A stretch of 62,536 nucleotides of DNA, the filler included, from Dirinaria sp. TL-2023a (Eukaryota): assembly GCA_051941275.1 (NCBI GenBank). It is 3 parts of 3 records of this genome, joined end to end, with 100 filler letters (N's around TTAATTAATTAA, not from the genome) between each part and the next. Parts side by side here need not be neighbours in the genome. Positions count along the whole stretch, not along the records: positions 20,932 to 41,757 come from JAVEBF010000276.1; 2 more parts are not named here. One strand, given 5' to 3'. The notes under the pieces are model-generated. The model was not told the origin of the DNA. It made no database searches and worked only from the letters and a program-made list of their open reading frames with translations. Each line of letters starts with the position of its first letter. Within the stretch, counting starts at the first letter, position 1. A program made the position numbers and the translations under genes. Of this stretch, positions 7,301 to 52,000 are shown one piece after another.

Positions 7301-7339
7301 ACTTAAGACTTTGACGCTGTTATCAGAAATGCTTGACGG

Positions 7340-7349
7340 GAAATTTTTC
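7340..7349 (-). promoter_or_regulatory. RRPE-like motif (GAAAAATTTC) in the RPA43/DnaJ divergent promoter
   Basis: Lies 40 nt upstream of the RPA43 ATG; resembles the ribosome-biogenesis RRPE element. Confidence 0.45.
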
Positions 7350-13500: not shown

Positions 13501-14647
13501 TCATCAAGAAGGCCGTTCAGGATCACGATAACACCAGGAAGCAGCTAGAGCAGTACAAGGGCCAGCGTGTACTTTTTATCGACAAAGGTCTCACTGGATT
13601 TGCCAATGAGATATCAGAAATGCTCAGCCAGCTTCAGCTTCAGCCTATCGTGGCTAGCCCTGAGCGCTTACTCCCACTCCTCCAAGCTCTCAAGTCGGCC
13701 CCCAAAACTGCATCGCAGCCACCTGACGGTTTGGCTTATGATGTGATTCTGGTGGACGATATGCACATTGCAGATGCGCTTCGTGGTGTCGACGAACTAC
13801 GGTACGTGCCTATCGTGCTGCTGGCACCTGTAGTCTCTGTAAGCATGAAATCGGCCCTGGACCTCGGGGTCGCGTCGTATATGACTACACCTTGTCGTCC
13901 TGTCGATCTTGGTAACGGCATGATTCCAGCCCTGGAAGGGCGCCAGTCGACCACGGCAGCCGATCACTCGAAGTCATTCGACATACTCCTCGCAGAAGAT
14001 AACGATGTAAACCAGCGACTTGCGGTGAAGATTCTGCAAAAGTACAATCATGGAGTGACAGTGGCGAACAATGGCCTCGAAGCTCTTGAAGCGGTCAAGA
14101 AGAAGCCTTACGAAGTCATCCTCATGGATGTGCAGATGCCTATCATGGGCGGCTTCGAGGCTACCGCAAAGATCAGAGAGTACGAGCGATCCCAAGGCCG
14201 GGTCCGCACGCCCATAATTGCTCTCACAGCTCATGCCATGATGGGAGATCGGGAGAAGTGTATCCAGGCGGATATGGACGAGTACCTCACAAAGCCGTTG
14301 AAGCAAAATGTGATGATGCAGACGATCCTCAAGTGCGCCACTCTGGGAGGGAAGTTGCTACAGCGTGGTACGGAAGCCAGACTTTCAGCGAGTGATGAGC
14401 CTCCCGCAGCCGCTCCGATCACCGCAACCAGAATCCCAGGTCATCAAAAGAAGGATTCGAAGAGTGGGAGGCCGCAACTCGAAGCACGTTCTGTAACGTC
14501 TAGTGTCGTCGACGGCAATGCCGAGAGTCCGTCGTTAATCTCGGCGGACCAGAGAGACCCGTTAGAACGAGTAAGTCACATTTTCCGGAATCGTGCACGT
14601 ATTCCGCTTACACGGCATAGGTCTTGCTGCGCTCTCACAGTGGATAG
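10551..14647 (+). CDS. NIK1: Group III hybrid histidine kinase (six HAMP repeats, HisKA, HATPase, receiver), exons 10551-11439, 11497-14570, 14621-14647
   Basis: Repeated [15 protein letters not shown] units, H-box [20 protein letters not shown]-box [11 protein letters not shown], receiver ILMDVQMP; introns GTAAGT..CAG and GTAAGT..TAG; last exon VLLRSHSG*. Confidence 0.96.
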
Positions 14648-15219
14648 CAGTGCGTTGTACGATGTGGGAGAAATCTGCATTAACGATCTGTCGCATTATT
14701 ATTGAGACGCTGTGCAATCGTCCGGCGTTCTAGATATGGGAGGCATGTTTCGGCAGCTGGACGTTGGACGCATCAGGGCAATCTGGCCGATGGATGAGAT
14801 GAGGAGAGGCAACAGCGTGGTACAACTGGCATGGGGCTACGTGATTCTGAGGGCGTCAGACTCCGACTGTCGACAACACCACGGATTCTTTGAGATTTGT
14901 GTCATTTTAGCGATGATTCCCATGAGTTTCTCTTCTGCGTTGAAGGTTTGTTGACTTGGGGAGCGCGATGCGCAGTGACGGATGCGAGGTCGGCATCTTT
15001 GATTTGTCGACTGGCTTGTAGCTGTAGAGGAGCAAGCAGCTTGCGCGAATCGATTACCATTTTTTTTTCCCAAGCTCATCCGCAACACTGACAGCACTGA
15101 CTCCGTTGAACCTGATCTTACTAAGGTAGTCAGTTGATCCTCTGTGGCGAGCGGCGTGATGATACGAGGGTTCCTCCTAAGGTACCTACCTTACCTGGTA
15201 GATCGGGAGGCGGCTATCG

Positions 15220-15255: not shown

Positions 15256-15722
15256 GATACTGGCCAATTAGCGAGAGGGTTTTCCCCGGGCTCAGCTTGA
15301 CGATGGAGAGACAAGGCTGAGGTGAAGCAAGAAGAAGCAAGAAGAAGCTCGTGCGACCTGTCACTTTATTGGGCTCAACATTTTATGACAAGGCGTCCGA
15401 CCAGGCCAGTCCTTGCGCCCAGAGAGCACAGACGCCTCCTCCCCTCCTGCTTTTCTTCTTACCTGTAACTTGCCATCGATGGACCTCTTCGACTTCCCAT
15501 CTTCATCACTACGGTACAGTACTGAACCAGTGCTGCTCCATCGAATGAATGATGACTGATGCGAGAGGTCTGCGATGTACTCTCCATTATTAGTCGTGAC
15601 TATACTTACCTTGCTCTACCTTACCTTAGCCTCTTCTCTCCGCCGCAACACGGTCAGGTGATCTGGTGATTACGTCACATCCTAGCGCACCCACACCGTC
15701 TAGCGTTTCGCGTCTTGAAAGC

Positions 15723-18700
15723 ATGTCTCGCAAACAGACGCTTAGCGACACATCTCCTTCTCCTTATGCCTCCTATTTCCCCCTCCCTTTCCCTGCTGCC
15801 TTAGATGCGGCAGGTTCACGCCTCCCCGATATACGAGCTCTGCAAAGACGCATACATAACAGCAGGGCGGTTTTGCAACGCTTGCCTCATAGCCCGGAGT
15901 ACACAGCAGAAAGATTAAAAATCGAGAACGAAGTGGGCATCATGCAGGGTAAGCTGCAAGCGCTGGAGCGGGAAGCAGATGCCCAACTACACGCCGACAA
16001 TATGAGGTTCCTGGAAGATAGTGGTGCAAAGGTGGGGAACGGGCAAGGCTCGCCCCAGGCTCTTACCTCTCCTGCCGGACCCCAGTCGAGCCGTCTGTCG
16101 ACACCTTGTCCAGATAGGTCCAGGAAGCGGGATAGAGGCAGCAGTAGCAGCAGCTCGAACGACCACATAACTAAGTCAATGCGCGCGACTCCAAGTCCTG
16201 CAGTCACCGGTCCTACAACTCCGGCATCGCCCGACTCTTTGGATTTTGAGGAGAGTGATGAGCTCATCCGTCTGCTGGGAGGTGATCCCAAACAGCATAT
16301 GCGCGAGATGCGCGAAGAACAGCGCAGAGAAGAGGAGGCTCTACAAGCCAGAAGGGAGCAAGAGCGAATGGATGAGGAAATGGCCAGACAAATGGAGGAA
16401 GCAGAAAATTCGCTCCTTGTGTCGTCACCAGAGCCGTCAGGCCCGGGAGCTAGATCTAGCCAACCACCTCGTGCTCATTCACAGACCTACTTCAGCCCCG
16501 GAGGTAGACTTCAAGCTCGCCAAGCGCAGACTCCTACCACTTTACCGTCCAGAAGCTCCCCTCATTCGTCCGCAAGAAACAACTACGACTCTCCTGGTAG
16601 GGCCAAGGTTGAGTATCCGTCCACGAAGCTAAGACCATTTCAACCGCAGAAGGCTCCGGATTTCATTGACCTTGGAGACGACGACGATTTCGTCGATCTG
16701 ACGGGAAACTCTAGTAGCCCTGTGGAAAATAACTCCCATCTTTGGCCCCCTGATGGATTCAATGTTTCAAGCGGACGTTCGCTACCGTGGGTAAAAAACG
16801 AGCGTCAGATTCCCACCGTCAACGCCGTCAACGGCTTCCTTGGTAATGAATCAGCCTACGCTCTACCGGGATCTTTTGCGAGCAATGGCATTCCCCAGCA
16901 AAGCTCTTCAGATTGGGGCACTACAGTAGGAAACTTTCTGCAGACAGGTCTGAATGCGGCTCAGAGCGTTTACAACGCTGGCTCCTCAATGCTAGATCCA
17001 TATTCTGCTTATGGCAGTGCAGGGTATGGGCCAGCAGGATCTTCAGACAATCCTATCCCATTCGGTGGCAACTATTCCCTTTCTAACAGGGATAATCTTG
17101 CGTACAGTGGCCTGAATGCCCATTCGATCGACATCAATGATCCACAAAATCAGGAGCTCATCAGTCGCTACCGAGACCGTGTTGACTACCTAACGCACGA
17201 TCCGACACGTACAACTGAGGAAATTAAATCCCTGTTAGAGAACATTCGGCCTGACGAGGATCTACCCAAGGAGAATCGCGAAGGCACGCCTGATGCCATG
17301 ACATACCCATTAATGGAACACCAGAAGCTTGGCCTTGCCTGGATGAGAAAGATGGAAGAAGGATCGAACAAAGGGGGGATCTTGGCAGATGATATGGGGT
17401 TGTAAGTTGGTATCTTTTCTTACTTTCTATACCTTGTTCAGACTTGATACGAGATTCGGAAATTTTTTGGTGTTTATGCACTCCACAATCAACCTTGCCG
17501 CTTGCAATCCCTCGGTGCAGAAGTACTAACTCTGAAACTATGTAGGGGCAAAACCATTCAAGCGCTTGCGCTCATGGTCTCGAGGCGATCGCAGGACCCT
17601 GGTCGTAAAACCACTTTGATCGTTGCACCGGTAGCATTGATGAAGCAATGGGAACGAGAAATTCGGCGGATGTTGAAACCAGACCGGCAGCACCGGCTGA
17701 GCACTTTCATCATGCATGGTCAAAATCGAAGTGCATCATGGGAAAAGCTACGAACGTTCGATGTGGTGCTGACGACATTTGGTACCTTGGCCACTGAGCT
17801 TAAACGCAAAGAAGGCATCGATATGGCCAAGAGGGCCAACCCGAACTGGAGGCCTATGGGCAAAGCCGACCAGCTACCACTCTTAGGCGACGGATGCAAG
17901 TGGTACCGGGTAATCATTGATGAAGCGCAATGCATCAAGAACAAAAACACCCGGGCTGCAGTTGCAGCCTCGTCTCTACAAACGCTCACAAGGTTTTGTA
18001 TGACAGGGACGCCAATGATGAACAATATCGGCGAGCTCTATTCCCTTATCCGTTTCCTGCGCATCAAACCTTACGATGTCTCGGAGGTATTTAATCGCGA
18101 TTTCGCCAACCCACTTAAGAGAGGCACAGGCGAGGGCGCCGAAAAGGCCATGCGAATGCTGCAAGCCCTTCTGAAGGCGATCCTACTTCGCCGAACCAAG
18201 AAATCGACAATCGATGGCAAGCCAATTTGCACTTTGCCAGAGCGGACCACGGAAGCGCAAGGTGCTGAATTCAGCAGCGACGAACGCGATTTCTATCGGG
18301 CTTTGGAAACACAGACGCAACTACAATTCAACAAGTATATCAAGGCTGGCACGGTGGGTAAAAATTACTCCAATGTGCTGGTTTTGTTACTGCGACTGCG
18401 CCAAGCCTGCTGTCATCCACACCTGATCAAGGACTTTGGGGTGGCATCTGGCAGTCCAGACCTGACTCTAGAGGAAATGCTAGAGGTTGCCAAAGAACTT
18501 GCTCCATCGGTCGTTGCTCAGATACGAGAAAGGACTGGCAGCGGAGATTTGGGTGGTCTCGAATGTCCGATATGCATGGACATGTCGGAAGATGCGTCTA
18601 TCATCATACCTTGCGGGCACAGCACTTGCTCTGAGTGCTTCGCTCGCATTACGGACCCTTCTCAGGCCATCGCCAATGGTGATGCTGAAGCTAACTCGAA

Positions 18701-19771
18701 CGGCATCAAGTGCCCAGAATGCCGCGGAAAGATCGACCTCCGGAAGGTCATAAACCATCAAGCCTTCAAAAAGGTACACATGCCTGGCTTCGCTGGGGAG
18801 GATTCGGGCTCCGGTACTGCAGCGCATGAGGATGAGGATGAGGACGACGATGACGAAGATGAAACAGAGGATGAGAGTGGAGAAAGCGATGTTGACTCGG
18901 ACGATTCGGGTAGTCTCAAGGATTTCGTCGTGGATGACGATGTCGTCGATGACGAAACGGGAGATGATTCCAACGATGATGCCGAAGGCTACCGCAAGGG
19001 CAAGACTCCTTTCGAGAAGTCGGCTACGCAGCAGAAGGAGAAGAGGAAGTCCAAGGGAAAGGGCAAAGGAAAAGCCGTTGAAAAACCGTCCAGAAAAACA
19101 CTTGCCCAACTCAAGAAAGAGGGTAACCGTAACGCTAAGGCACGGCAGAAATATCTAAACCGCCTTCGTAAAGAGTATGTGCCCAGCGCTAAGATTGAAA
19201 AGGTGATGGAAATCCTCCGCGCCATACAAGAAAGCAAGAGCGGCGAGAAGACTATCATTTTTAGTCAATTTACTTCGCTTCTCGACCTGCTTGAACTCCC
19301 GATCGCTGACGAGCACTGGAAATACAAACGCTACGATGGGAGCATGAATCCTAAAACACGTAATGAAGCAGTCCTTGAATTCACCGACAACGACGATTGC
19401 AAGATCATGCTCGTCTCTCTCAAAGCAGGCAATTCTGGCCTGAACCTGGTCGCAGCTTCTCAAGTCATCATCTTCGACCCCTTCTGGAATCCCTATATCG
19501 AAGAGCAGGCGATCGACCGTGCTCACCGTATTGGGCAATTGAGACCTGTCAAGGTCCACCGCATACTCGTACCGGACACGGTGGAAGATAGGATCCTGAA
19601 ACTACAAGAAGAGAAGAGATTGCTCATTGAGGGCGCGCTAGATGAGAAGGCCAGTCAAAACATCGGCAGATTGGGAATTAGGGAGCTGTCATACCTCTTT
19701 GTAAGTCGCTCCATTGCGATCTTCTTAACATGGCCTTTTGCTGATGTGTCTAGGGCGTGTCACACCGCTGA
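15723..19771 (+). CDS. ULS1: SNF2-family ATPase with RING finger, Uls1/Ris1 (Rrp1/2)-like SUMO-targeted ligase; exons 15723-17401, 17546-19700, 19754-19771
   Basis: GGILADDMGL|GKT Walker A, IIDEAQCIKN, CMTGTPMMN, RING CPIC..CGH..C..C..CPEC, QAIDRAHRIGQ; SIM-like DFIDL/FVDLT in N-term; GTAAGT donors at 17402 and 19701. Confidence 0.88.
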
Positions 19772-20831
19772 ATCACCAATAAAAATATCGCTAGTCTTCC
19801 GTTCCAGTTGTCTTCCTAATATCCACACTTGCCAATTCAGATCGACCGAAGTTCGTGCCTTCCCCAAGAACGTTGAATATTGCGCTAGTCAATCATTTGA
19901 CTACCTTACGGATTGATCATCACAGCTTAGCACCCGTATCCGTTCTCCCTTACTCTTCGAGCCTTCCTGCCTAGCCCACCATCAACCCAAATACCGCCCA
20001 CACCGACCAAATTCAGCACATTACAAATTCCGGTACCCCTTTCACTCATTGCACGAACCGAACCCCCAAAAAACCAAAAGAAAAAAAAAGTTTTCAAACA
20101 TTTAGAAGATACCCCTTCTGCTTGCGCAGACTTCGCCACAGGCATGGAGCAAGGGGCGGCGGAAAATGGAATGGAGGAAAAGTCTTATCTTTCTTGCTAT
20201 CGGAGGTCTTTGTTAAGCTTGTTTTAAGTACCTCAACTTTGAGGTAGTGACATGCCGCATGTCTTGCAAGCTACCTTGAGCTGCGCGCGCTATCTGCCTT
20301 TGTTAAATCACAGAATAGCATTGGAGAAGAAGGAGAAGAAGAAGAAGAAAGTGTATGGTACCTAAACTGTGCTGCTAGTCTAAAGTTACTTTACCTTATC
20401 ATTCTGCCCACTCCGTTTTTTACCTGGCTTTTCATTGCTCTTATCTTTTCACCTTGCGCTTATTCGAAGAATCAAACAAAAAAACAAAAACAAAAAGAGA
20501 TATCCACAAGTCATCATTCTGACATTATCGTCATCGTTGTTCAATTTTTTCTCTTTCGATCCTCTAATTAATCCTTCGCACCACTCAGATTTCATGCTCT
20601 AATATAAGGGGAATCTCACCACTACTACCAAAAAAAAGAGTCAATGGTATTTGACTTTGCCTAACTTTTCTTTCCTTCTTTTTTTACCCGCGACTTATGA
20701 TCCGTTTTATGGTGATACTTGATTTCTACTTCCCTCCTGACAGTCTCTTCAAAAAAAAAAAAAAAAAAAATTCCTTCCATCTCGCTCCCTACCCACCCAT
20801 CATCGAGAAAATCCCTACCAGAATACAATAT

Positions 20832-20931
20832 NNNNNNNNNNNNNNNNNNNNNNNNNNNNNNNNNNNNNNNNNNNNTTAATTAATTAANNNNNNNNNNNNN
20901 NNNNNNNNNNNNNNNNNNNNNNNNNNNNNNN
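20832..20931. other. Artificial contig linker (N44-TTAATTAATTAA-N44)
   Basis: Six-frame stop linker, identical to 41758-41857. Confidence 0.98.
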
Positions 20932-27943: not shown

Positions 27944-28887
27944 ATGCCAGTCTCACCCAGCGAGGAACCCGCAAGGGTCTCGCATAAACGGTCTAGCCCT
28001 TGCTCGTGTGAAGCGGACGACAGGCCCAGCAAAGCAGCCTAAGTGGCAGATGACGATCCTCAGGCTGTGGCGGAAGCTCGCACTGCCGACCTAGAGAGCC
28101 AGGTGAAAGAGCTTCATGATTTTCTTGACATCAATGGGCTTGTAAATGGTTCGTTTGCACACTCTAGGCGTGAACGACCAAGCTGATGATGTGCATAGAA
28201 GCTCCAAAATCCATACAATACCACCTGCTCCGTCGTCCCGATGCTGTAAAGAGACATGCTGCGCAGATAGAGACAGCCGCCACCAACAAATTTTTTAAAT
28301 TATACGCTAAGAACGGGAACGCAAAGAAGACCATGGTGACTTCAGACGACCTAAGCAGAGCAATGGTACCTTTCCTAAGGAAAGCGGAACACCTGTTGGA
28401 TATCCCGAATACAGCCGGTCTCGTGTTCGACCTTGTCAAGATGCTGGGAGAACATTCCTATGGAGAACTTGACACTGAGTCCGACGAGGGTAGGCCGTCA
28501 GATTCCATTGTCGATGAGCTACTTGAGCGGCTCGCACCGGAAAAGCGACTCGCAGAGCCGAATTGGGATTTCATCAAGGACTTGGAGGAGCTGAAGCGGG
28601 TGGCTGAAAAGTTTGCTGACTACGAAATGGAAAATTATTGCCCCCAAACCATCAAACTGCTTTCAAAATGGAAAGCCGCATCGAGGCGCACAATTCCCAA
28701 AACAGACGAGCAATCAGATGTATCGTCAGAGAAATACACAGCAGTAAACAAGGAGATAGCTAGCTCCGAGAAGCCTGCAAGGGTTCAACGGCCCAAGGAA
28801 AAGACAAGAAAGCTTACTATCCCGAAAATCAGGAGAAGAGGAATATCTTTCCAAAGCACCAGGAGCAGATTACTACCATATTATTAG
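27944..28887 (+). pseudogene. Hypothetical protein gene with an in-frame TAA (28040-28042) in exon 1; intron 28149-28198
   Basis: MPVSPSEEP...SKAA*VADDDPQAVAEARTADLESQVKELHDFLD continues through the stop and splices (GTTCGT..TAG) into ORF 28186-28887. Confidence 0.6.
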
Positions 28888-31207
28888 CTCCTATATTCAA
28901 TATTAGGTTCGATTCCTGTGGCGCTGGTACAATGGTGTAATTGTTTTGGTTCTTACTAGGCGTGTGAAACACCTGACCGAGGGATGTGTTTGAAGGATCC
29001 AAATCTTCACCTTTTGTCCTTAGCACGCTGCTGGGAATACCTCGGAAGACCTGCTTTATGGATTTTTCACAGAATTTTTCGATACGCCAGGAAAATGACA
29101 TTGGAATCTCCAGGCACAAGATTTAAGAACCAAGTACTACAATATCCAGGAAGATTTGTATATCCCTTCATCGTTCCTTAGTCCAACAATCGTATGGTGT
29201 GATTACAGACAAGCTACACGGTCCTGAACTAATATCTTACAAAATGTGCTCCTCGACAAAGTCTTGAAATTCTGCAACGTATGACGCATTATACAAGGTT
29301 AATTAGATTTACTCCTACTCCAGCACTCTAAGCTGCGGTCCATCTTGGTTCTTTTGCCTCGACTCTTTTTATACTACATAGTACTTTCTCCGCATGTTTC
29401 TAGCCCAGCTCTTCACCTTCGACACGGCATACACCCCACAATAACAAATTGCAAGTGATGATCACTCTTCAATTTCCAAGGTGCATTAGATGTTCACAGC
29501 CGGGCTTGCTGTTCATATCTACAACTCATAATACTACTTATCTCAGACATTGCTGCCCTACTTCTCTATACCATATCATTCTTTAAATTTCCTAACAATC
29601 ATCCTCGCGTGGGCTTGGGTCACAAATTTCGTATGTTGGGATACTTCGCAGACCATGTCGAGTCCCCACAGGGCTATAGCATGTAACCCAGTGTGTTGAT
29701 CGAACTAATTTAACCAGAGAGTCTTCTCTGCAGCCCTGGAATTCCCCCGAATGACAATACGGAAAACACCAGATTGCCGTATCCTTCGTTCTACCCTACA
29801 CACTGACCTGAATGCGCAACGCGACCAATGAACGAAGAGCATCTATGTCGAGAAGATGTCAGCAAACTGATCAAATGCGTCATGTTTATCCATCTTAAAC
29901 TCAGACTCAGCACGTCAAAAAGCCAGACAGCATTTTCGCGAACCTAGAGTGGCTCTCTACCTTCTAACTTGATGGTTGTGGATTCAGTGACGAAGCATTG
30001 CTTTTGAATCGCGCGATTTCTTCCCGAGCTCTGAGTTGAGAGACATGTGAAACCTTCCCGTACCTTATTTCTATTGAAAGTCAAATCTGTGACTCTGCTT
30101 TCATTTCAATACCTCTTACATTAGCGATTGAATATCGCTCATCACGAAAGCAGCGGCTCGTTGAGCCAAGTCTCTCTGTTTTGATTCGATGCTCGAACCT
30201 GGGAGACTAGATGAAATGAATAAGGGCAAAATCTGTGTCCCTGCTTTCATTGCATTTACTCAATCTCTTTTGCCCTCCACGAATTTCAGCTCAGCAATCA
30301 AGTTCCATTTTACCATTCAGAAGTTCAGGTCAGCAGTCGAGCTTCTCATGACTCCGCACAAAGTGCGGCTCAGTATTCGAGCGCAATCTAGTTCTTCAAA
30401 TAATCCAGCCCAGCAAAAAAGTTTTGTTTGACTCTGCAAAGTAATCAGCTTCACAAGGGTTCTCTTACAAAAGAGCAAAATATTCTGCTATACGAAATTT
30501 TCTTCTGGCTCTGCAAAGAGTTCAGCTTCACACCAAGTTTCGCTCTATTATTCATGACAAGAGTGTTAAGTGTGAAGCTCAGCCGCTAGTCTGCTTCTAA
30601 TTAGAGAGACGAAGCGCTCGGTCGCATGAGTCATCTAGTTTCTAATCAGTCGGATCGACTGGGCTTGGTTTGATGTGATTCTGGGATATCTGACTGCTAA
30701 TTATTTGTGCCCAACAATCCGCTCAATTCCTACGATGGATCCTTTGGATTGGTACCTTGACCTTGCCAACAGAAACGAAGATAGACCCTCCAATATGCGG
30801 CAGTTTCATTTAAACGTGAGTTGAATTCTGGACTTTTGAATGATTGATGAACGATTATCAATACATTGCCAGGGAAACAACATAGTCATGGTGTATACTT
30901 CTGAACGCTTCTGCTGATTCAACTATAGCATATTTGACTCAGATGAAGAAGCCCCGTTAAGGCTATATTCAAGGCTGCCAAGAACTGATGAATCAACTCA
31001 CAAGTAATCGCTAATCAGTCAGAAACCGTGTCGTCTCGTGAAGTGGATCAAAGATGTGGGTTGCTAAGAGACTATTGAAAATGATTTACGAACACTGAGA
31101 TTTCTAACCACATCTTGAAAGCTACGGCTATCGATTGCTAATCGCGATTTGACGCAAGAATTGCCACACTGATGTCAAATACGATAATGCCGCCAAAAAG
31201 CCAAATT

Positions 31208-31603
31208 CTAATTTGGCTCTACTCTGAGAAAATTTGTTCGCTTGACTCTTACCTTCTTGGTAGTCGCGAAAAGAACGAAGAAGACTGTATTACCACATCA
31301 TCAAAAGTTTTTACTCAACACCATCTCACCAATTGCTTTTAAATCACGATCCGAAGAATACTTCTCGATTGGTCAAAATTTAAATTCAATCATCGTAACA
31401 CATTTCTTCGCAACGATATTTTCTGCAATCTGTCTTCCTGAGGATTTCGTTTCTCGATATCAATTGCCACTTAGAAATCCTCTTATACAAGCTATATTCC
31501 ACGTTTGAAATTTTTCAGTAGTACAATTCTCCACAGGTTGCTCTTCAAAATCCCATTCTCAAAACACTGTTGCATCACGCGATCTTTTTGATTCGATCTG
31601 CAT
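31208..31603 (-). pseudogene. Possible decayed ORF with five internal TGA stops
   Basis: 132 codons, all internal stops TGA (VF*EW, GN*YR, KF*PI, NF**CG), consistent with TGG>TGA; family unrecognised. Confidence 0.35.
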
Positions 31604-31897
31604 TTGTTGATATTCTCAACTTTACACAAGTTGTGCTTCAGAAATCTATACTGTATGCCACGATCAGCGTTCAGAGGTCAACCTGGTTCTCTTATACATC
31701 CTTCTCCCTTTCACCGCTCATAAGCGTCACACTCTAAGAACAGACGTTTTATGTTACATGATGCCCAACTCGAAAAAGTTCTCTATCTTCAGCTAAGGAG
31801 TTAAGACTCACATCGCGCAGTGTTTTCCTTTGTCTCACAAACTTCGACCTCATAAAAGTCATAAGTGTTCGCGATCAAATCTTGAGTTAAGAGAGCA

Positions 31898-32560
31898 ATG
31901 TCGAATCGATTACCAAATGAGATTTTAATGAGATCTATACATTGAGACTTATGATCGTGAGTTGAATTTGAAATCGGACACACTGAAAGAGACTACTTAT
32001 GCGTCGAAGACATCACAGTTGACTTATTATGTTACGGGAACATTGGTAGCATCAACCAAGTCATTGATCTGTTTTGGACCCAGCACCAGGACTTTGCAGG
32101 CCCATACACCAGTACCTTTGGTACACCAGTCCTTCGTTGAGTGAGCCACGGGATTCCGTGCCAGCTTCACCGTTTTTTGGGCACCTTTTGGTCTGCAAGA
32201 ATTGCTCTCGCAACAGATTGTTCTTCTCATTCTTTCGGCATCAAACAAAAAAAGATCTCTCAAGCACAACTGAATCTTACACGTTCTTCGATCGTACATG
32301 CTATTTTGGTTCAGTCTCGAGACCGTGAAAGAATAATAAAATGTGGAAACTGTGCTCTTCAAAGAGCGAGAGAGATAAGATCATCATCTTATTTTGTTTG
32401 TATTCGCGAGAAAAGTTATTTCGAAGACGCATATGAAAATTGCAAATTCTCAAATCATAATATTTGATACTTATTATACGATCAAGATGAGATGTCTCAA
32501 ATGATGCTTTTTCCTCCCAGTCTTTTTCTTTTCTTTTTCTTTCTTTTTACTCGTCAGAGC
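31898..32560 (+). pseudogene. DUF3716-like Cys-rich protein relic, hypermutated
   Basis: RSSIVHAILVQSRDR..CGNC..SYFVCIREKSYFEDAYENCKFSNH fits the DUF3716 pattern RPS..AIL.QSRG..C..C..P(F/Y)..C...G.FGGAC.NCK with P>S, G>D/E/S, C>Y; internal stops all TGA. Confidence 0.65.
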
Positions 32561-32949
32561 ATTCAGCTCTCGTTGAAATGAGATGAATCAACAAACCCAA
32601 CTTCTAAGGCTTTTAGAAAGGTGGATAGGTTGACTACCAAAGTTCCGAATCTGCTCGCAGCCTGGCAGGAGAGAATCAGATATCTGAACCCCAGTGATTT
32701 TCTCCGCAGAAACGTCGCGCTCTCATGTGCCTCTCGAAATCACAGTGAAGATATAAATCGCGCGACGTGAAGCTCGAAAAATCGAAACGCTTCAATGCAC
32801 TCAATTTTCACGATTTCAGCACTCCTTGATCACCGCGTGAACTACCATGGCGTTAGAGCTAAGCTGTCTTTCTGGAACTGTTCAATGAAGCATATTTGTT
32901 TTATATCGCCCTCTTGTTTAATGATGGAGTGGAGCTGCGGTCTAGCGTT

Positions 32950-34780
32950 CTCAGCATGATACTGCTGCTCGTCGCTCTGCCATGGAACGTATCACCTAGG
33001 AACGGGTAGAGGAAGGAGCATCGACGTTACTTGAATGGCGAGAGACCAACTCAAGAACAAGATGTATTCTTCGAGAAAGCAGAATGGTACGACATAGACC
33101 ACAAAAGAGCTGGGGAGAAAAAGCCAGTATCGGTAGTCGCAAAGAAATAAGACGATGGATGAAACAATGGCTTCATTCTTGGAGAAAGAACGCGAGAGCA
33201 ATCTAAATCTCATCACCATCAATCTTTGTTCTGGCGGGTCAATCTTCAATCCTCAAAGATCCAGACCATCATCGCTTCCTTCTGGCTTTGGGAACGTGGA
33301 ATCAAAGTCACTCTACGCCGTTACAACCTGCCTCGATTTAGCTGAAGAGCAACGATGCTTTGATCGATACATCACCCGCTTCACGTCTTTTGAAACCTCA
33401 CTGCTGAAGCAAGAGCCAATCTCGGACCCCCTGCATTGCCTCGAAGAGACTTGCAAAAGTAGCCGAAGTTTCAGACGAATCAGTACTACTGATGGCGTTC
33501 TGCTAACAGCGTTATTCTGTCACAACAACATCATTATCGCTGTTTAAACGAACGGTGACTCTTGCGCAGGATAGAACTACTGATGGCAAGAGTCGTTATG
33601 GGAGATTTTAGATTTAGAACAAGAAAAATTACTGAGGAGCGGAAGGATGAAACGCACACCTTAGTAAGTGGTGTGGCTGAATATGGGCGATATTTGGAAA
33701 ACGGCAAGTGCAGAAACAACATTACTTCTCGCTTTCCATACCAACTAAAAACGCAGATATCAAGCCGCAAACAAAAACAAAGAAATAGCAGCTCAATCGC
33801 CGTCCTAGCGCTGTTGCACGACCTCATGATCATTCCCGATACTTTCTGAGACTCTTTCTGCGCGTGGTCCTCACCTTCTACACAACCTGGCAAACAAGGA
33901 CTATTTACTATCTCGGAGCTTACCTCTCGTGCCGCCCGATTTTAAAAAGTCGTTGATCAGGAAGACGATGATATCGAGCAAGCCGAAGAGAAAGAATGAG
34001 CTGGATGCCGATGAAGTGACTTGGACTCATTTCTATTGTGTTGAGAAGTTCTTTTGTGTTGTTTTTGATTTTTACCCTGTGCCACTGATGAAACCGAATC
34101 GATACTAGCGAAGATGAGGAGGTTTGTCCCTGACGCTTGCGAAATTGTATCCTTTCCATAAGCACATTGTGATCTGAATAAACCTCCGGTATCAGTTTCA
34201 TCATTTACTGCTGAAAAATGGTCACGATCAAGTTTTACTCCTGGATCATCAAGCGTAAAGAACAGATCTGCCTTCGAGACACCAGGGATAACTAATATTG
34301 AACATGGGTCGCGGCTCGAGAGGAGCGCCTTTCAACTGTTCTTCCACTGGACGTGGATGATCACAGAGCTAGTGGCTCGATTATATTTTCTAGAATCAAG
34401 TCTCAAAATGAACAAGTCTGACTTCCAAAGCAAGATTGACGTGTCTTCGAGTGCTCAGATCGCTCTGCAGACAATTGATCGAGTTTTTCGCATTGAGCAA
34501 ACTCGAATTTGTTTTATTTATGTATTGATCGTTGATCATTCTTATGATCAAATACTACAGACGACGACGACGAAAAAACAAATTGGCATTATCGCAAATC
34601 AAGAGAATTTAAAGCTCAAACAATTCAGTGTTCGCATTATTCAGCAAAAATGCGAGCAGTTGTATGTTCGACAGTTTGATCAACGATTCTCTCGAGTCGC
34701 ATGAGACAGTGTTCAGCATTTGAACATGAAAAATTCGTTCGAAAAAAAACAACGATTTCGCAGTCAACATCGATGACTCA
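32950..34780 (+). pseudogene. Decayed SNF2-family helicase
   Basis: AQIALQTIDRVFRIEQTRICFIYVL.VDHSYDQ (~34453-34550) reads as SNF2 motif VI QxxGRxxRIGQ with G>D and G>E; upstream ORF pieces are broken and the 5' boundary is approximate. Confidence 0.6.
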
Positions 34781-35126
34781 AAACGCGGAATCAGGCGAGC
34801 CGAAACGGTGGCTGGATACGCAGGATGCTGGTTTCAAAGAGCTATATTGTATATGTCTGCGACTTCGGCAATAATTTGAGATCGTACATGCATCATCGAT
34901 ATTTGGATAGATATTTCTCACCTAATCAAGCTAAACAGTATGCTATCATTGCAATAACATGTATTTTCGCTTCGCGCCTCGTGACTCGTGAATCTGATGT
35001 CCAGTCAAACCTTTTCTCCAGGCATTGAAGAACACCTTTGGCAGCTCCTGCGTAGCTCAGCCAGTAAGTATTGCCCGCATCTTACGAGGTAAATCATGGC
35101 ATACCGAGAGGAAGAAAACCGTCCAT

Positions 35127-36436
35127 CTACATTTGACCCCAATCCCGTTTCGCAGCACCATCAAGGTTATCAACACTCAGCATGCCCACCCCTTCGTGAA
35201 CCAGAACGTTCCATACGTGATCCCTCAAATTGATGGGCCAAGCCGGGGTATCCCAATACCTGGCCTTAAGGCCACGATTGTTCGCCTCACGTACTTGACC
35301 TCTAATGATCTCAATCTGGCTTGGTTTCAACATACCTAGCCAAGGAGAGCCAATAGCCTGAGCGAAAGATACGCTTGCGTAGTAGGAATTCTCTGATGTG
35401 TATAACGATGCATTCGCGGGCGGGTCCTCTTCGTTACCCCAGAGCTGGTCGAGAGGGGCATCGAAAAATATATCCCGATATGGGTTACTAATACTGGATG
35501 TTATAAGCTCAAGACGCGTGTTTCCCGTGCCCACAACGGTCACTTGACGATTAAGTAATGATGAGCCGTTGAGGTGCGTGAGGTAGCCTTGAGAGCGCAG
35601 TGGCGCAAGCTGATCAACTAGTAGAGGCAGCGTTACATCAGCATCGGACTTGATGTCGACCAACAGAGTCAGGGATGCGGTAGGATCAGTATCGAAGATG
35701 CCCCTTCTTTGTGAGTCCGGGCTGAAGGGCGAGTTGAGATTCTGACCATTTAGAATGTCCACGAGCGGGTTGACATAAAGCGAGCGGAGGCTCCGATTAG
35801 ACGACAGAGACGCTTTGGAATGGCCGACGAAGAGGTCACCGTTCTCCAGCCAGACGTCCGCTTCTATGCCGGTACATCCAGCCGCTAATGCGTTGTAGAG
35901 AGGCACCCGCCGCCAATAATCGTTGTGAGAGTGACAAGGTATGGGCACTATATCACGGCTGAAGTCGGTTGGCCATTCTGCCTCGTCCTCCGTTATTGTT
36001 CCCGCTTTACCCCAGGATGCTAATATTCTTTGGATATCGTTCCTTGGAATCTTCGAACTCAGGTGTATATCAACATAGATGAAGAGGGACAACAAGACAC
36101 TAATGGCTTATTAGTACTGAAATTGATTGCTCATTCGCGATGTAGCACTGACAAGTTTAGAACAATCGCTGTAATGGCAACTGCTTTAGCTGTGACGAAT
36201 TTTCTTGTCCGAGGCCTTATCCCTCGATGCATCACTGGCCTTGAAAAACCACGCCCGAAATTTCCGTCAGACGGGATTTTTCTAAGTTCTGGCTGCAAAT
36301 TTTGCAGACTTGTCTCGGGCAATGCGCTGTCGGGCGAGGTATCTCGTACCGACGTAGGATGGAAGACAATCGCAGGCTCCGCTGCAGTATATCTTGTAAG
36401 ATTGTGTTTGGACGACGGAACTCCCTTCAACGGCAT
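35127..36436 (-). CDS. AIM6: AIM6-family PLC-like phosphodiesterase with N-terminal membrane anchor; exons 36436-36153, 36099-35127
   Basis: DFSRDIVPIPCHSHNDYWRRVPLY.AL.AGCTGIEADVW, LTLLVDIK, ARYWDTP; 53-nt GTCAGT..TAG intron. Start codon uncertain. Confidence 0.82.
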
Positions 36437-39400
36437 GCTTGCAGTTGTAGCAAGCATCAGTGTATGATATAGCGCGTACATACAACGGTTTGAGAAGTAG
36501 ATAGTATATATAGAGGTAGCAAAACCGTGTAAAGTATGCATATAAAATGAGACTAGCAACGACGTCATGAAATTCTGATGGAACGTCAGCTTGTGATTGC
36601 AGACAATCACTGGCCGAAGCGCATGCTGGCACAGAATGCTCCTTTGATGAAAACGGTCGATGCAAACACGGAGCTGGGTAGGGAGGAACCGCCGATCGGT
36701 CTACCATCGTTTCACTCCAGCTTACTCTGTGAGCTGGAGTTTACATGATGTGGATAGTTAAAGTGAGACTCCAGTTTGTCGCTTACGCGACGCTGTGTCA
36801 AGCATGATCACGAGTCTCCTGGCTTTAGACTGACGCTTTGCCACGTCCTCATGTCGTTCTTGATCCCGATCCCAGAGCATGCAGGGAGTCAACTGAGTCA
36901 AGCTCCGCCTCCAGAAACAGATCTCGTGCTCTAGTTTCTAAAATCCAAGTTGCGGTGTTTGAAGAGCCAACAGATACGCCTCGCGGTACCGCTCATGCTG
37001 TTTTAACCTCAGATTTTCAAACGCGCAGGAATTGATCCAGGCTATACTCCATCTTCAGAGTCGAAGAACGAAATGTGCATTCCGAAGAGGAGTAAGAGCG
37101 TCTGAAGAGACCGAACGTATGTGTGCGTAAGAAGGTTCGAGGAGTCAACGTCTAAGCTTTGCCTCATGCCTCATGCCGCTTAGACCTTCGATCCCGGGAA
37201 TTGACTGGAGTTGTCTGGATTAGCTTCACCTGGAGGCTGGTGAGATAGAGAGCTTCCCCCTTGAAGGAAAGTACACAATGTCAAAGCACTGATACACAGG
37301 CAGAAACAAATAGGCAGCATTAACGTCTAGTGAAACAAGGAGGATGACACTACTATGGATTGCAGAAGGCGCATAGGAATGACGATGCTCAAATGTGATT
37401 TTGCTTTGAAGGAATGAGGCACAGAGTGCCAGAAGTCTGGATTTACGGCTCAGCGGCATGCTCCCAAACAGAAGAATATCGAGCATAGTCAAATGCGGCC
37501 GAGTAGCGTAGGGAATTGTATTGTGGAGAGTCGAAGGCTCTAGCATTGTTGCGATGCCGCGATATTCAGCTTACATGGCACAGACTCGCGAATCAGGCCT
37601 CATCAATCATTATTCGTTTTCGAGTCAGGGTTGAGGAATATGCGCAGTTCGTTGCCAAGCATTAGATCCGATCATCCGAGTCTCAGCCGCTCCCGCTAGA
37701 GGCCTCGGCGGCGCGTCTCGGAGCGGAAACGGAATCTAATCTTATCTTAACGCCTCCGCGCGCATAAGACCACCAGACTAAACAGATATCGCAGTAAAAC
37801 TGCACGACTTGCTATCGTTCCTTGGTGGCAGGTAATCCTCACACGTAAGATCTGACACCACTGCTGCACTTATGTGACAGTATAAAAGAATGCTTCGAAT
37901 CCCTTTCCAGCAGGTTGGCTGTCTATCATCTATCGCAGCATCACTGAAAGAATGACATGCCTATTCAAACAAGGGCGCTCAGACCACGGTTTCAACGAAG
38001 CACAGCTGACCGTGTTTGCCGCTGACCTCCCGCCATTTCCATCGCAGAACCTATTCGAAGTTGACAGAATTGATTCTATGACCATTGGCAGAGCTTGGTT
38101 CGTTGACCATGTACCAATTAACATTGACGCAGTCCCCCGCATTTGGATCGGTAGTAGTCTGGGTCGACGAATCAAATTGTGCAGTGATGACCCCCTGCAG
38201 ACAGTTAGACATCGAATACGTTTTGCGTTGAGCTCTGAAAACAGTCCATGGTACGTACCATACGAGAGTCACCGGCACAGTCTGTCGCGGCGAACGCTAC
38301 GAGGTTTTTATGGCCCCATTTACCAGTCCCGAGGGAGTAGGTGATACTATTTGTCGCCCCATCTATGCTCACGCACCCGAGATCGCTGTCTTTGTTCTGG
38401 TAGATATGCTTGTCTCCCGAGCTGAGAGCTGCTGTCAGGCCGCATTGTTTCAATGTAGCTACTTCGAATATCATGGCTTACCACGCCTGAACATCCCACT
38501 GAGTCACCCTCGGCTTGGTCCAACGAGCTTCCAATATATTTAGAAAAGCTGCGACCTCCGTTGCCAAAGTCGCTGCGAGCGTCAAAAGAGCGAAATGCAT
38601 GGTTCGAGAGGGTTTCTATAAAATTGGGTCTGTGGTCTCGGAGTGGAATTCTTTGAAAACTAGCTTCGTATGAGTGTCAAGATTTGGAGATTTTGCTTGT
38701 AATTCTGGCCTTGATGTTCTCTTGGGAGTTCTCTGTCTTATATGGACAGCTTAGAGCTTGCAGCAGTCTGGATTCATACGTCATGTTCAGGGGGGGCCAA
38801 CGTTAGCATTCCGTAACATGATTAATGGATCTTGTCACAGAGTAGTGATGTAAGTTAGTGGCGCATTCCACAATTCTGAGCCAGCACGTTGCCATCAGCT
38901 AGAGACTACTTGTGGAGGCCCGTGCAGAAAGACTTTGGAAAGGGATCATTGAATGGATCAAGCCAAACTCTCCCCTGCTGATCTACCCCTTTCTTATGCT
39001 CGATAGGTTTTAACAAGGGGATCAAACAAGCTTGCTGCGTGCGAAACGGAGAAATTCGACTCGGAGGACATGTTCCAGTGGGCTGGGAAGTTTTCTCCGT
39101 ATGTTGGCTAGTTTCGAATCGATCTCACTGTGTTGCAGAGTCATCACAGCTGGGTTAACACAAATGTTGAGTGGCAGACCGACCAGTGCAGCGCCCTTCG
39201 GAATGCGTCATTTGATATTCCTAGCTCTAGTCAGAGCTACATAGATGCCGCAGGCCTTGCTGCAATTACCAAGTCAGAAAGTTGTTTTGCTTTTGGAGGA
39301 CGACCGCGGTTATAGGTCGGCTTTGCTCCCTTGGTCATTCGCCGCGTTTGACGGGGCATGCCCTACAATACTGAAACAGATTCGCTCGCCGGGAAGACGT

Positions 39401-41757: not shown

Positions 41758-41857
41758 NNNNNNNNNNNNNNNNNNNNNNNNNNNNNNNNNNNNNNNNNNN
41801 NTTAATTAATTAANNNNNNNNNNNNNNNNNNNNNNNNNNNNNNNNNNNNNNNNNNNN
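41758..41857. other. Artificial contig linker (N44-TTAATTAATTAA-N44)
   Basis: Identical to first linker. Confidence 0.98.
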
Positions 41858-43618: not shown

Positions 43619-46317
43619 TTACATCAACGAGCATTCTCTTTCGGGTTTCTCGAGCCTTTGCTTGGAAAGCGTTCCAAGTCGATGGGACTGGGAAGTCTTC
43701 CGACTGTGCGTAACAGCTGCCTCGAAAGGCTTCGGGCCATCTGATGTCGTTGGCCGAGAAGTTTTCCCAGTCAACCCAGTGCTCGGATCTGAGGCGACAA
43801 GGGATGAGTTACTCCTTTCTTTGGATAGGCGTCCGGCCAGCCGAGACAAGGAAAGACTTGACCTCTTGTTCACAGCTCGGCCAACCTCACCTTCCGACGA
43901 ACTGACCTTGCTGGTTTTTGAGGCACGACGAGATGCGCCGCCAGTGTTGTGGTTAGCGTCTACCGAAAGGAAGGAAGTAGAGCTGGCGTTCGAATCTCCA
44001 GCAATAGCGCTTGAAAAGGCTATGCTCTGCCGACGGTCATCACCTGTTCTTCCCCGCCTATGGTCCGGTATTGCAGAATCGAGGCTATGACGGCTTGGGG
44101 CATCAGATAATCCAGCAATACCGGAATCCGTGCCGGTAGACTCGCTATACGGCGGGGGTTCAGAGTCGGTTGGGAGGCTTGGGTCAATCGGTTCCACTCG
44201 ATAGAAAAGAAGATATGGCTGCTCTTTATCCAAGAACTTTCGAATGTCGTCAATATACGATATTCTTTCCTTCGCGAGATCGTCCATAAGAAGCCACCGA
44301 TCTGAATCACTCCCTTCGCCTGGGCTACGTACAGCGCTGATGTAATGTCCAAAGTCACTTCTTTGGCCTTGATGGCAAAGCAAGCTCTGCAGCACGAGCA
44401 CGAAACAGCCATGAAGAGGATCAACATCCGAGACTGAGTCATCCTTTGCAAAATGCGGCATGTCATAGACGAGGGGTATGTCGATGAATGTCCCGCGTCG
44501 CACGCTTCGGCCGTTCTCCATCTGCGATCGTTTCAGAGCTATGGGCACCTAAAATGCATGTGTTCAGTATGTATGGGCCGCTGATGAAGTATTTTTGGAG
44601 GGACGAACAATTGGCCGGTTCTGCATAATACTGGCAACCTCAGCGTCCGTGCTCGGTAGACGACCTTGGCCTTCTGACGGATTGCTCCACGCTGTAATCC
44701 ATAAGCAGACGATGTGATAAACAACCTAGAATACTCACGAATCAAATTGAAGAACTGCCATGCGGACATTTTCACTTCCTTCTTCAAGCTACCCGCTCGT
44801 CGGCGGTTGTTCATGAGATCGGAATATCGTCTGGGCGAGGGTGATTTGCCCAACTCCACTTTCTCCGGATCGACGGTGGAAGCAAATATGCTCGGCATTC
44901 TTTCTCGGTCCCCTGCAGGCCTCACAAGCAGCGTTGGAGATGGCGTACTCTCTGGTTGAAGTGCTTGGGGTGTGGATGGCTGTGAGTCTTGAACACTTGC
45001 CACCTCGATGTGCAAGGTTTGGCCTTTCCCAGAGTCATCAGACATGGTTCGTTTCATGGAATTCAGGGTATTTCTCCTTCCCTGTTGATATCGGTAGACC
45101 TCCACTCGGTTATCGAAATATGTAGTCAAACAATCCTCCAGAGAAATGCTATGCCCATCTTCGGGCTGAGCTGGGACTGGTACTTCGATGACCCGCTCCT
45201 CTACCAGCCTGTGGTCGCTGCTCGTATCCTCTTTACCGCTGTGAAATAGATCCATCTTCAGTGTGAGCATGGGCAGCGCCAGCTGATCTGTTATGAAAGA
45301 ATATGCTTCCGACGCATCTTGTTGATGCGTCTCAGCAGCTTCTTTCCATCCGCACGCAGCAAGAGCAAGCTGCAACTGCCTTGTCTGCGAGCGATCAGTA
45401 TGACCGCAGTAATCGCTGAAGCAGAGTTCAAAACTCACAATGTCTGTGGTAATTAATCTTTCTGTTCTCAAGAGATTCACCCAGAGCCGTATCATCATTG
45501 CCAACCGTCGCTTTGGCTCATCGTCATGTTTGCGAGTAAGCATCGATTCGAAGTTATCAAGACGACCAAACATCGCGAAAAGAAGCGCATCAAGCCAGCA
45601 TGTGACGCCGTCCCTGTTGATCGCACCCAAGCCTTTTTGCCATGGCTTGGCTGGTACAATACTGCCATTCTCAGTAGACCTTAATAGCTGCAGTACTTCG
45701 TCGGCCTTCTTGCGATCACCTTTTGCGTATGGCTCTTTCAATATACGTGCTAAAGCCTGATCCGCGACTTCGGTCGGACGGTCGATACCAGCTAGACGTT
45801 GTGATAATGCTTTACCCTATAGCACATTAGCGCCCTATTACGCAGGTCCGTGAACATGCGTCTTCGGCAGATTGACGCTTGTCAGCTAAGCTGATTGTGA
45901 TAAATTTGGTCGGTGTTTGGTTTGATTCGAGTAAGAACACTGTTCGAAAATAGAACGCAGACTCCTGCGTGCAAAAGGCAGGAGCGCCTTCGATAGTTTA
46001 CAAATTTCCCGCACGCAACATACCTTTTGCTCTTCATCTTTCTTTGGTACGTCTCTCTCATGGTCAGTAAAAGCGTCGTGCAAGGGTCCAGACGTCTGTC
46101 TAGGCTGCAATAGCAGATCCTCATACGCGTTAGCTGTTGATGCTTGAATCTCGCTTTGAGTAGCTGATAGCCGCGGACTTCTTTTCGTTGCCGGAGGAGG
46201 GAAAGCGGAAGACAACAAATTCAGAGAAGAGGTGGAGGAATTCCTCGCATGAACTAGCGGCATCGATGGAGAGGAAGGATAGGAGGAAGAAGCTGTAGAA
46301 GTGGATGAAGTTTCCAT
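43619..46317 (-). CDS. Ubiquitin C-terminal hydrolase (USP family); exons 46317-46024, 45816-45439, 45384-44739, 44691-44609, 44548-43619
   Basis: Cys box NRDGVTCWLDALLFAMF, QQDASEA, His box CHQGQRSDFGHY..DD; four GT-AG introns restore one frame. Confidence 0.88.
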
Positions 46318-49004: not shown

Positions 49005-52000
49005 GTGGCGCAACAGGATGGTCTGCAAGGGCGCCCAAAGCATGGACGCCTCGAAAACCTGTGTCGCTGTGCTGAGGCTGAGCCATCAATAATACCAGAA
49101 TCCCGATTTGAGGAGATATCGAGAGCACTAGAGGCAGTTGTCCAGAAAAAGGCATGGGCTTCGCGACCAAGGACGTATTTCATTCTATGGCAGGTCGGAC
49201 GTGTCGATGCTACGGAAGCTTTCATCGGACAGGGAATCAACGATACATCACTACCATACAAGAGCCGAAGTTCTTTGCCAGAAACTCTGCATTTTGGCGA
49301 GGCCCCTCAATTCCTGGAATGGCAAGATAGAGTTAGCAGTGATATCCCGCACTTGGAGCAAGGGAAGCACGTTCGCATCTCTAACGGTGATGCCCTCTTT
49401 GAAAGCGGCCGGAAGAGGTTGGGCGTTGGAAGCCAAGGGTAAGATTCATCTCATGAGATCAGTATGATGTCTATATGGCTGCTCACATATTCGTCGAACA
49501 TTGAGCATGAATCTATCGGGATCTTTTTAGGATTCTCTAATAAATGCTGACCGAAATTGCAGATCCACAGTCGTGGACAAAGTTACTAGCAAGGCCACAG
49601 TGAAAGTCTACGCCGCGGAAGCGGATAAATCGCACGAAAATTTTTGGTTACGACAAGCAGGCGCAGAAAGTCTACGAAAACGAGTTGAAGACCCTCAAAA
49701 AGGTGGCTGATCATGAACACTCATCAAAGTAAGAGGGACTTATACCGACAGAAAGTACATGGTGATGCTGTTAGATCCAGTCGCAGACGAGAACCTCAAG
49801 CAATATATGACTGGAGTATCTCAGCTCTCTGCCAAGGAGCAAGCTCGTTTCCGAACTTACTTTGGCTGCCTTGCTCACACTGTTCGATTTCTCCATGATC
49901 CGAATATCGAGGTCCCTCATAAAGACATCAAGCCTGAGAACGTGCTACTCAAGAATGGGCACCTTATCCTGACAGACTTTGGGACAGCTTTCGATTGGTC
50001 CAAGACTGGTCAGAGCATGACCCTAAGTAACGCTAAGGATTCCCGGACGCCACGATATCAAAGTCCGGAGTCTGCGCTGGGAGAGTTCCACCGCTCGTCA
50101 GACATCTGGTCACTCGGCGTGATGTTTCTTGAAATGGTCACCTCCCTTCGTGGCAAAACACTGGGAGAGATGGATTTCTTCCTCCAGGGACACGGCCAAT
50201 GCGCCACTAGTATACATCTCAACATTGAAGGTGCAATGAATTGGTTTGAACAATTGCAGGCTTACCACTTTGGCTCACCGATCGACAATGAGCCCTGACA
50301 TGGATAAAGGGAATGCTCAACCGCGTACGATCCAATCGACCGACGGCCGCACAGCTGTTCGATGATGTCGTGAGCTCTCAAGATGGGAGATTCTGCGGTG
50401 TGTGCTGTCAGGATGCAGAATCCAGCTGCAATGGCATTTCTGAAACCGAACGGGATGTGCTCTCTGACATTCTGGAACTTGATGAGCCCAACACTTTGAC
50501 ATATCCCAGCGGCCGACAATATGACGGTACTGTTTCAGACGATCGAACCTACGAGGGGTTAACGCCAAACTCGTCCTCCAACAACGAAGAAAGTGTAGAA
50601 TCTGCACGAATTGCGAGCCTGTTACATGCCTCAGTCCTAAAGTATCAGATTGCTTGTCAAAGCAACATAGACAACCCAGGGTATTCGCGCAGCTCATCTG
50701 CTAATTGTAAAATAAGTGATCAAGCCCTTAGGACACATTCAGCATCTCGACATGTCGTCCCGCAGATTGCATCCAGAGCATTCAAGTCCTCCATGGAGGC
50801 TTACTCGTCAACAGCTCAAAAGCTTGGGACTAATCCACAGTCAAAGAACTTTCACGAACGTGATTACTTCATACAATGGTTGTCTGGTGTTTTGGAATAG
50901 TTCGCCCACACGCCACCACAACACCGTTCATAGTTCTCAAAGTCAGCCAGTCATGAAAATTACGCTCCGAGTCTCGAAATACATAGGATCGAGCAATTCC
51001 TGCGCTCTTTACCAGAGGAGATCACAGGCTATGACGATTCCATGGGCGACTTTGAAGATTTTGGAATTACGCTGCCTTTTGAATCATCGAATCGAAGCCG
51101 AATAATGCCAGCCGTCTCTCGTCTCATGAAACGACCAAATAGTCAAGGGTACCTCCAACCTACGTCTCACTTGCTACATGAAGGAGATAATGAAGACCAA
51201 TTTGCTGATGACGAGAAGCCAAAATTGGTGCACTACGCCAGCAACGGAGATCTTCATTCGGCTTTAGCACTATCAAAGAAGCTTTGCATTTAATTAAGAG
51301 GGATGTCGAGGAGTTTGTAGCCATGATACAGCTTCCAAAAAGTAGACCGGAACCAGAGGCTGATGGTGCCATCGTACAGAATCAAACGCTGCTATTGGCT
51401 GGTTCTGCAAATGTAGAACATAGGCCTGCGGCTGGCGCAGATCTAAGATCACTCGTTGCAAAAGAGAGTGTTTTTGAAGATATCAGAGCTTGCACTGGCC
51501 ACACCGCTGATAAGGGGCCGGCAAATGCCGAAGCTCAACAGAAGCAAGAGGGAAGACGGCTAAAGAAAGTTGACCCTCGGACTCAAAGTGTGGTTCCGTC
51601 AAAAGCCGTGATAACTTTGGAAGCCCCTCCATCGAATGAAAAAGAGATTATTTTCAAAGATATCTCAATTCACACCGATCACACCGCTGATAAGAGTTCG
51701 GCAGGTGCCGAAGCTCAACATAAGCAGGAGGGTAGACAGCTGAACAAAAATGACCGTAGGACTCAAAGTGTGGCTTCATCAGAAGCCTTGATAACCTTGA
51801 AAAACCCTCGATCGACGGCATTCACTAGAAAGGACCCAGTGAGCCGCCGACGACACTTCGAACCTGCATCCGATATCATGAAGAGAATCCTGGACGATAA
51901 GTCCTCTGAGGTGCCAACATCAGTTATCGCTGCGAGGACGCGGGCTGCTGTATCAAGCGGCCGAATCGGTCTCCGTTGGAATGACAAAGCTTATGGGTAT

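Follow-up and report, generated by a model that had tools for sequence, protein, structure and literature searches.

Which process can strip a stretch of fungal DNA of almost every CC and GG dinucleotide and leave CG, CA and TG common? This question is raised by a region of about 5 kb (29800-34850) within a 62,536-nucleotide stretch of DNA from Dirinaria sp. TL-2023a (assembly GCA_051941275.1), which we refer to as the window. Dirinaria is a lichen fungus of the Caliciales (Lecanoromycetes), and the gene content of the window is of the filamentous ascomycete type. The window consists of three joined pieces, namely contig C275, contig C276 and a third piece, and the depleted region lies within C276. 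The assembly that was searched is fragmented (27.7 Mb in 3,105 contigs). The initial annotation had interpreted the region as the product of a hypermutation resembling repeat-induced point mutation (RIP), aimed at CpC rather than CpA. RIP with a retargeted sequence context is also the best reading of the data presented here, and we assign to it a probability of about 0.62.

Direct counting reproduced the dinucleotide numbers of the initial annotation exactly. Only two CC or GG dinucleotides were present in 34381-34780, next to 23 CG, 36 CA and 24 TG, and four each were counted in 32221-32510 and 31801-32030. On the basis of composition, 26.9 and 16.5 CC/GG were expected for 34381-34780 and 32221-32510, respectively. 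The observed/expected ratio (o/e) of CC in the three patches was 0.07 (34381-34780), 0.24 (32221-32510) and 0.26 (31801-32030), and thus lay far under the local expectation rather than near it. Shuffling the bases of 34381-34780 20,000 times yielded a mean of 26.7 CC/GG and a minimum of 9. When the whole 62.5 kb was analyzed in 400-nt windows, the 11 windows lowest in CC/GG all fell within 29800-34950. In the patches TC/GA was elevated (o/e 1.55-1.67), CT/AG remained at ~1 and TpA was low (o/e 0.33-0.57), indicating that the first C of CC is the base that was lost. The region as a whole displayed a moderate depletion (CC o/e 0.67). Its successive segments gave values of 0.55, 0.98, 0.59, 1.13, 0.24, 0.66, 0.79 and 0.07, and the flanks 0.92 and 0.90. 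Dispersed gene relics, mutated to different depths, are clustered in the region.

To determine the context of the changes, repeat loci of the assembly were compared all against all. From the 42 pairs listed, eight (Ty3, Copia and DDE elements) that were strongly one-directional and covered different mutated stretches were pooled. In the 3,818 aligned columns of these polarized pairs, C had changed to T or G to A 311 times, against 5 changes in the reverse direction and 11 transversions. Both strands were affected (C>T 129, G>A 182), the two types being interleaved along the copies. Mutation rates depended strongly on the 3' neighbor: 254/461 for CpC (0.55), 38/493 for CpT, 15/506 for CpA (0.03) and 4/356 for CpG (0.01). 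Hence, 82% of the changes occurred at CpC, and the spectrum is dominated neither by CpA nor by CpG, as the initial annotation had anticipated for an alignment of copies. The base 5' of CpC was nearly without effect (rates 0.48-0.60), but the base that follows CC mattered, with 94/124 for CCA (0.76), 47/72 for CCG (0.65), 92/160 for CCT (0.57) and 21/105 for CCC (0.20). The first C was thus seldom hit where a C that had stayed unchanged stood two bases on. Isolated CC dinucleotides (n = 290) became TC in 186 cases and stayed unchanged in 98, the remainder being TT (6) and never CT. Runs of CCC (n = 45) turned into CTC (26), TCC (2) or TTC (1), CCCC (n = 14) into TCTC (7) or CCTC (2), and all three CCCCC runs into CTCTC.

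Four further pairs had already lost CC from both copies. Their differences were found at CpT (143/742), CpA (85/841) and CpG (26/920), which extends the order of contexts to CCD (D, any base but C), followed by CpT, CpA and CpG. In a saturated locus pair, 96 transitions faced 6 transversions. The affected classes comprised Ty3, Copia, a DDE_1 transposase and a host-type SNF2 helicase relic. The C>T process is thus directional, acts on both strands and independently of repeat class, targets the first C of CCD and is limited to repeat-like DNA.

The helicase relic, which lies in the window, allowed the process to be followed at the protein level. It matches 54 proteins, the long ones carrying SNF2-rel_dom and Helicase_C, and some of them are labelled as lichen fungi. 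Compared with 12 homologs, conserved sites had changed from P to S, from G to D, E or N, and from S to F, and an in-frame TGA was found where the homologs keep a conserved Trp; the G>D/E, P>S and W>TGA changes that had been described from the sequence were therefore recovered. A protein-level search located four paralogous places in the assembly (two in C179, one each in C100 and C1207). A C in the C179 paralog, whose CC content is normal, corresponded to T in the window at 16/27 CpC, 9/17 CpT, 2/22 CpA and 1/14 CpG sites. In the reverse direction the counts were 0/0, 0/13, 1/19 and 1/20, a total of 2/52. One homolog of the SNF2 end, P0124, carries G>D and P>S at conserved sites; at the level of the protein sequence, this may be a hint of the same process in another organism. 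A separate gene of the window (15630-19916, plus strand) encodes an SNF2 helicase with a RING finger in open frames and is distinct from the relic.

Coordinates of the relics and repeat pieces are compiled in Table 1. The suggestion that the patchiness marks the repeated parts holds for several of them. The two pieces that match C1264 are contiguous there, the window having ~640 bp extra between them. The C65 copy is more CC-depleted than the window (CC o/e 0.2-0.4). A piece at 34442-34582 also has a DNA copy elsewhere in the assembly. The C1264 and C65 alignments are older and noisy, and their polarity is less clear. For the Cys-motif relic a weak paralog was found, a PF12511 match in C85 that is likewise CC-poor. 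The suggestion fails for the long broken frame, which has no detected copy.

Table 1. Features of the CC/GG-poor region and their positions in the window
Feature	Coordinates	Strand	Remarks
Gene-relic island, CC/GG-poor	29800..34850		contig C276; flanked by two open reading frames whose composition is normal
Repeat piece, first	30461..30545	+	72% over 85 bp to C1264
Undepleted island	30600..30850		23 CC/GG vs 23.6 expected
Repeat piece, second	31188..31291	+	73% over 104 bp to C1264
Long broken frame, no family assigned	31215..32201	+	4 TGA, 2 TAA; covers the 31801-32030 patch
Undepleted island	32030..32220		27 CC/GG vs 24.0 expected
DUF3716-like (Cys-motif) gene relic, probable, weak assignment	32234..32470	+	26% identity, E 0.005 (single comparison) to C85
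T/C-rich run 3' of the Cys-motif relic	32505..32550	+	read directly from the sequence
Repeat piece with copy in C65	33856..34068	+	66% over 214 bp
SNF2-type helicase C-terminal relic (end of Helicase_C and downstream)	34357..34776	+	most mutated patch

A six-frame Pfam scan of the depleted region returned no real match, and in that scan the Cys-motif relic had none of its own; no homolog of 32234-32590 was found among longer proteins. In the C85 paralog, the place of the T/C-rich run is taken by a stretch rich in Ser and Phe. The run could have arisen from eroded Pro/Ser codons, although the poly-Pro origin that had been suggested for it is unproven because no intact homolog was found.

Does the process extend beyond the window? 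In 32 matches to reverse transcriptase (RT), 34 of the 50 internal stops were TGA, and 16/30 RT loci had a CC o/e below 0.3. The composite RIP index was negative in all 16 of these CC-poor loci and exceeded 0 in only 2/44 loci, so that standard RIP indices do miss the process, as had been predicted. Classical RIP thresholds were passed by a single one of 850 sampled windows, with a GC content of 52%, and the canonical Neurospora-type signature, a dominance of CpA>TpA with high TpA/ApT, was not found (CpA 15/506). Ordinary DNA was spared: among 732 windows of 500 bp from 40 larger contigs taken at even spacing (369 kb), none had a CC o/e below 0.5, compared with 11/118 windows from 40 small contigs. 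Two Ty3 pol frames without any stop (1,313 and 1,315 aa) coexist with TGA-broken copies. An RT relic at C2955 1-1145 departs from the main pattern: it has four TGA stops but a normal CC (1.10), its CpG is low (0.71), and its composite index lies slightly above zero.

Ty3 loci from metagenomes served as controls. In 80 such loci no 500-bp window had a CC o/e below 0.5, and none of 49 Ty3 alignments among them was dominated by CpC. Five control loci showed either CpA-type loss (CA o/e 0.31-0.69, TA 1.39-1.69) or, at one locus, CpG loss (0.14). Since the metagenome search favours intact Ty3 copies, it sets no limit on how widely the trait may occur.

The initial annotation had directed attention to the RID, DIM-2 and DNMT5 genes, of which the first and the last turned up. 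Searches of the assembly for C5 methyltransferases with PF00145 and TIGR00675 led to two loci. One, in C1379 (62-2662, minus strand), is a RID-type gene whose motifs I to VIII lie within a single open frame. Over 663 residues, its product and a Dirinaria-labelled protein are identical, and its relatives are labelled Heterodermia and Physcia. In a comparison of 111 RID cores, seven conserved positions set this protein and its two nearest homologs apart from the remaining 108; among the changes are D>P following the catalytic PC motif and RR>SG following motif VI. As a lead from protein comparison, these positions may contain specificity residues. The other locus (C712, ~4900-12100, plus strand) encodes an N-terminal methyltransferase with an SNF2 domain downstream, which is the architecture of DNMT5. 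Despite this gene, CpG is the least mutated context, which is not the spectrum of CpG methylation and deamination. DIM-2 was not found with PF00145, with TIGR00675, with BAH (which led to three other genes) or with a catalytic-motif pattern (a single match, non-coding), although in an assembly of 3,105 contigs this is no proof of absence. A small gene at C1492 1351-2178 combines a weak BAH match with a following Cys-rich, PHD-like exon.

These observations are consistent with RIP in a retargeted context, comprising the RID-type enzyme and a premeiotic recognition of homology. In such a mechanism, repeats would be detected through their homology ahead of meiosis. The first C of CCD would be modified by the RID-type C5 cytosine methyltransferase, the sole non-DNMT5 one found, and would then be fixed as T. 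After CC has been exhausted, a weaker action goes on at CpT and then at CpA, CpG being spared. The alternating products of C runs (CTC, TCTC, CTCTC) would fit successive rounds; alternatively, a C that has been modified before might no longer count as C for the enzyme. Several features of RIP in a broad sense are present, namely an excess of C:G>T:A changes that is confined to repeats (with the caveat of 31215-32201), independent of repeat class and found on both strands. That RID has been naturally retargeted to CCD is probable, and the process would presumably serve genome defence.

Several points weigh against this reading. The eight pooled pairs are partly interdependent, since three reference loci are each used in two of them. 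The clearest pairs are one-sided, and many others two-sided. In a 1,324-bp duplication in C1265 (1-1324 vs 5886-7209), one copy bears 95 changes and the other 0, whereas RIP normally mutates both partners of a duplication (PMC2621366; cited, like the papers below, from a partial text). The long broken frame is CC-depleted without a detected copy in the assembly; it has no Pfam match and no homolog at E<=0.1 either. A DNA search with 29500-35000 (5.5 kb) returned three short copies only, even though the protein-level search found more. Finally, the RID-type gene runs off the contig end past motif VIII, leaving its C-terminal part outside the assembly contig. RIP has thresholds of ~400 bp in length and ~80% in identity; the eight short repeats listed here gave small counts. 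One-sided pairs could result from recent insertion or from a collapse of copies in the fragmented assembly. In C1265, a Ty3 gag-pol free of stops follows a mutated duplicate of its 3' end, an arrangement that may be a real tandem or an assembly join.

The one-sided pairs and the copy-less depleted stretch, together with the intermediate depletion over 5 kb, would also fit a regional rather than pair-directed process, in which a DIM-2-type enzyme with CCD preference methylates and mutates heterochromatin during mitosis. A precedent is Zymoseptoria tritici, where Dim2 causes mitotic C>T changes at CpA in transposon-rich DNA and also methylates some CC sites (PMC8016269, in the part available); the link to a C5 methyltransferase is common to both, but that system mutates CpA and needs DIM-2. 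With no DIM-2-type enzyme found in searches of this fragmented assembly, and with sharp undepleted islands inside the depleted region, we consider a regional process of this type unlikely.

A different cytosine deaminase or methyltransferase that is directed at repeats or regions, neither RID nor described before, would likewise accommodate the one-sided pairs, and it would be in line with the lack of a CpC context in the RIP literature examined. The motif is the same as that of the chlorovirus methyltransferases M.CviPII and M.CviQIX, which act on the first C of CCD and weakly at CCC (PMC9636781, partial text). These are, however, viral modification enzymes and not repeat-directed mutators, and therefore a biochemical precedent only; a methyltransferase gene of their type was not found in the assembly. 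RID-type and DNMT5-type genes were the only C5 methyltransferases found, deaminases not having been searched for, while all remaining features are RIP-like and the target context varies among ascomycetes. Such an enzyme is therefore quite improbable. We give equally little credence to a separate repeat- or region-directed CCD C>T system that works without pairing or DIM-2, can spare one copy and has taken the place of CpA RIP in this lichen lineage.

APOBEC-type editing of retroelement cDNA and ultraviolet (UV) dipyrimidine damage in a sun-exposed lichen both involve CC, and the secondary context CpT is a dipyrimidine as well. APOBEC3G acts on the 3' C of CC, on one strand and in retroelements only, and UV produces tandem CC>TT changes with a preference for a pyrimidine on the 5' side. 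In the copy pairs, the 3' C of CC changed less than other C (7/357 vs 50/998), isolated CC gave CT in 0/290 and TT in 6/290 cases, and a 5' pyrimidine had no effect (25/692 vs 32/663, p 0.28). In addition, the strands are interleaved, DDE transposons and the helicase relic are affected, and ordinary DNA is spared. Both explanations are contradicted by the context counts and were rejected as highly improbable. Composition, a changed genetic code (TGA = Trp) and damage or assembly artefacts are scarcely credible: the patches were picked after the fact and are AT-rich, and the process is known here from a fragmented assembly and not from reads, but shuffling never approached the two CC/GG observed, none of the 14 low-GC windows of the larger contigs was CC-poor, the changes between copies are directional, stop-free Ty3 pol frames stand beside TGA-broken ones and the 49 Ty3 alignments from other organisms lack the signature, so that plain AT-richness and TGA recoding are contradicted, as is CpG decay by the CpG count of 4/356.

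How does the process compare with known forms of RIP? With the RID-dependent CpA>TpA RIP of Neurospora crassa and most Pezizomycotina it shares dense C:G>T:A changes on both strands, the mutation of all repeat classes, the sparing of ordinary DNA and a RID-type gene. Unlike in Neurospora, the first C of CCD is the target, CpA is minor, TpA is lowered and not raised, most stops are TGA, the relics examined have a GC content of ~30-38% and DIM-2 was not found. Magnaporthe, Botrytis and Sclerotinia, where RIP is of the CpT/CpA type (PMC4352252), are alike in a RID-associated shift to a 3' pyrimidine, CpT being second here, but the CpC rate in the present genome is ~7x the CpT rate. Aspergillus and Tuber with CpG/CpA RIP-like changes and the Pucciniomycotina with TpCpG (PMC4352252, PMC3318451) provide parallels for C>T changes of repeats outside CpA and for a three-base preference; unlike in these, CpG is least mutated here.

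We found no report of CpC-dominant RIP in the literature covered, which did not include supplements, Clutterbuck 2011 or Gladyshev 2017. In some Onygenales, CpC is a secondary context. The available part of PMC4352252 gives CpA, CpT and CpG signatures across 10 genomes, CpC being absent, and in those of PMC2621366 and PMC3017866 CpC>TpC appears as a formal category only. TpCpG hypermutation and, citing Clutterbuck 2011, a wide variation of targets in ascomycetes are described in PMC3318451. Neither CpC nor Lecanoromycetes occurs in the accessible text of PMC7882544; the context is CpG in that of PMC4014442 and predominantly CpA in that of PMC5555474. The lichen genome papers PMC12542154, 10.1101/2025.11.25.690456, 10.1101/2024.08.16.608140 and PMC13535494 mention RIP, and CpC is absent from the parts available. 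CpC is thus the sole CpN context without a report of dominant RIP in the literature examined. The case bears on the open question of whether the sequence targeted in RIP is determined by RID itself: if CCD is the native spectrum of this RID, a transfer to Neurospora would either carry the spectrum along or not. We know of no demonstration of RID activity in vitro.

The pieces of the window are separated by spacers of the form N44-TTAATTAATTAA-N44 at 20832-20931 and 41758-41857. As separate contigs were joined, genes across the spacers are unlinked. No tRNA was found in the window, and Rfam gave no match within 28000-37000. A hybrid histidine kinase with HAMP repeats is encoded at 10431-14705 (plus strand). 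The ankyrin-repeat gene at 51212-52981 (plus strand) has an internal 180-bp repeat; its sites are few, and CpC is slightly in excess among the changes in one of the two directions (6/23 vs 1/15). At 45151-45650, in an open frame by a UCH domain, CC is mildly lowered (400-nt windows, o/e 0.49-0.61), probably owing to coding bias.

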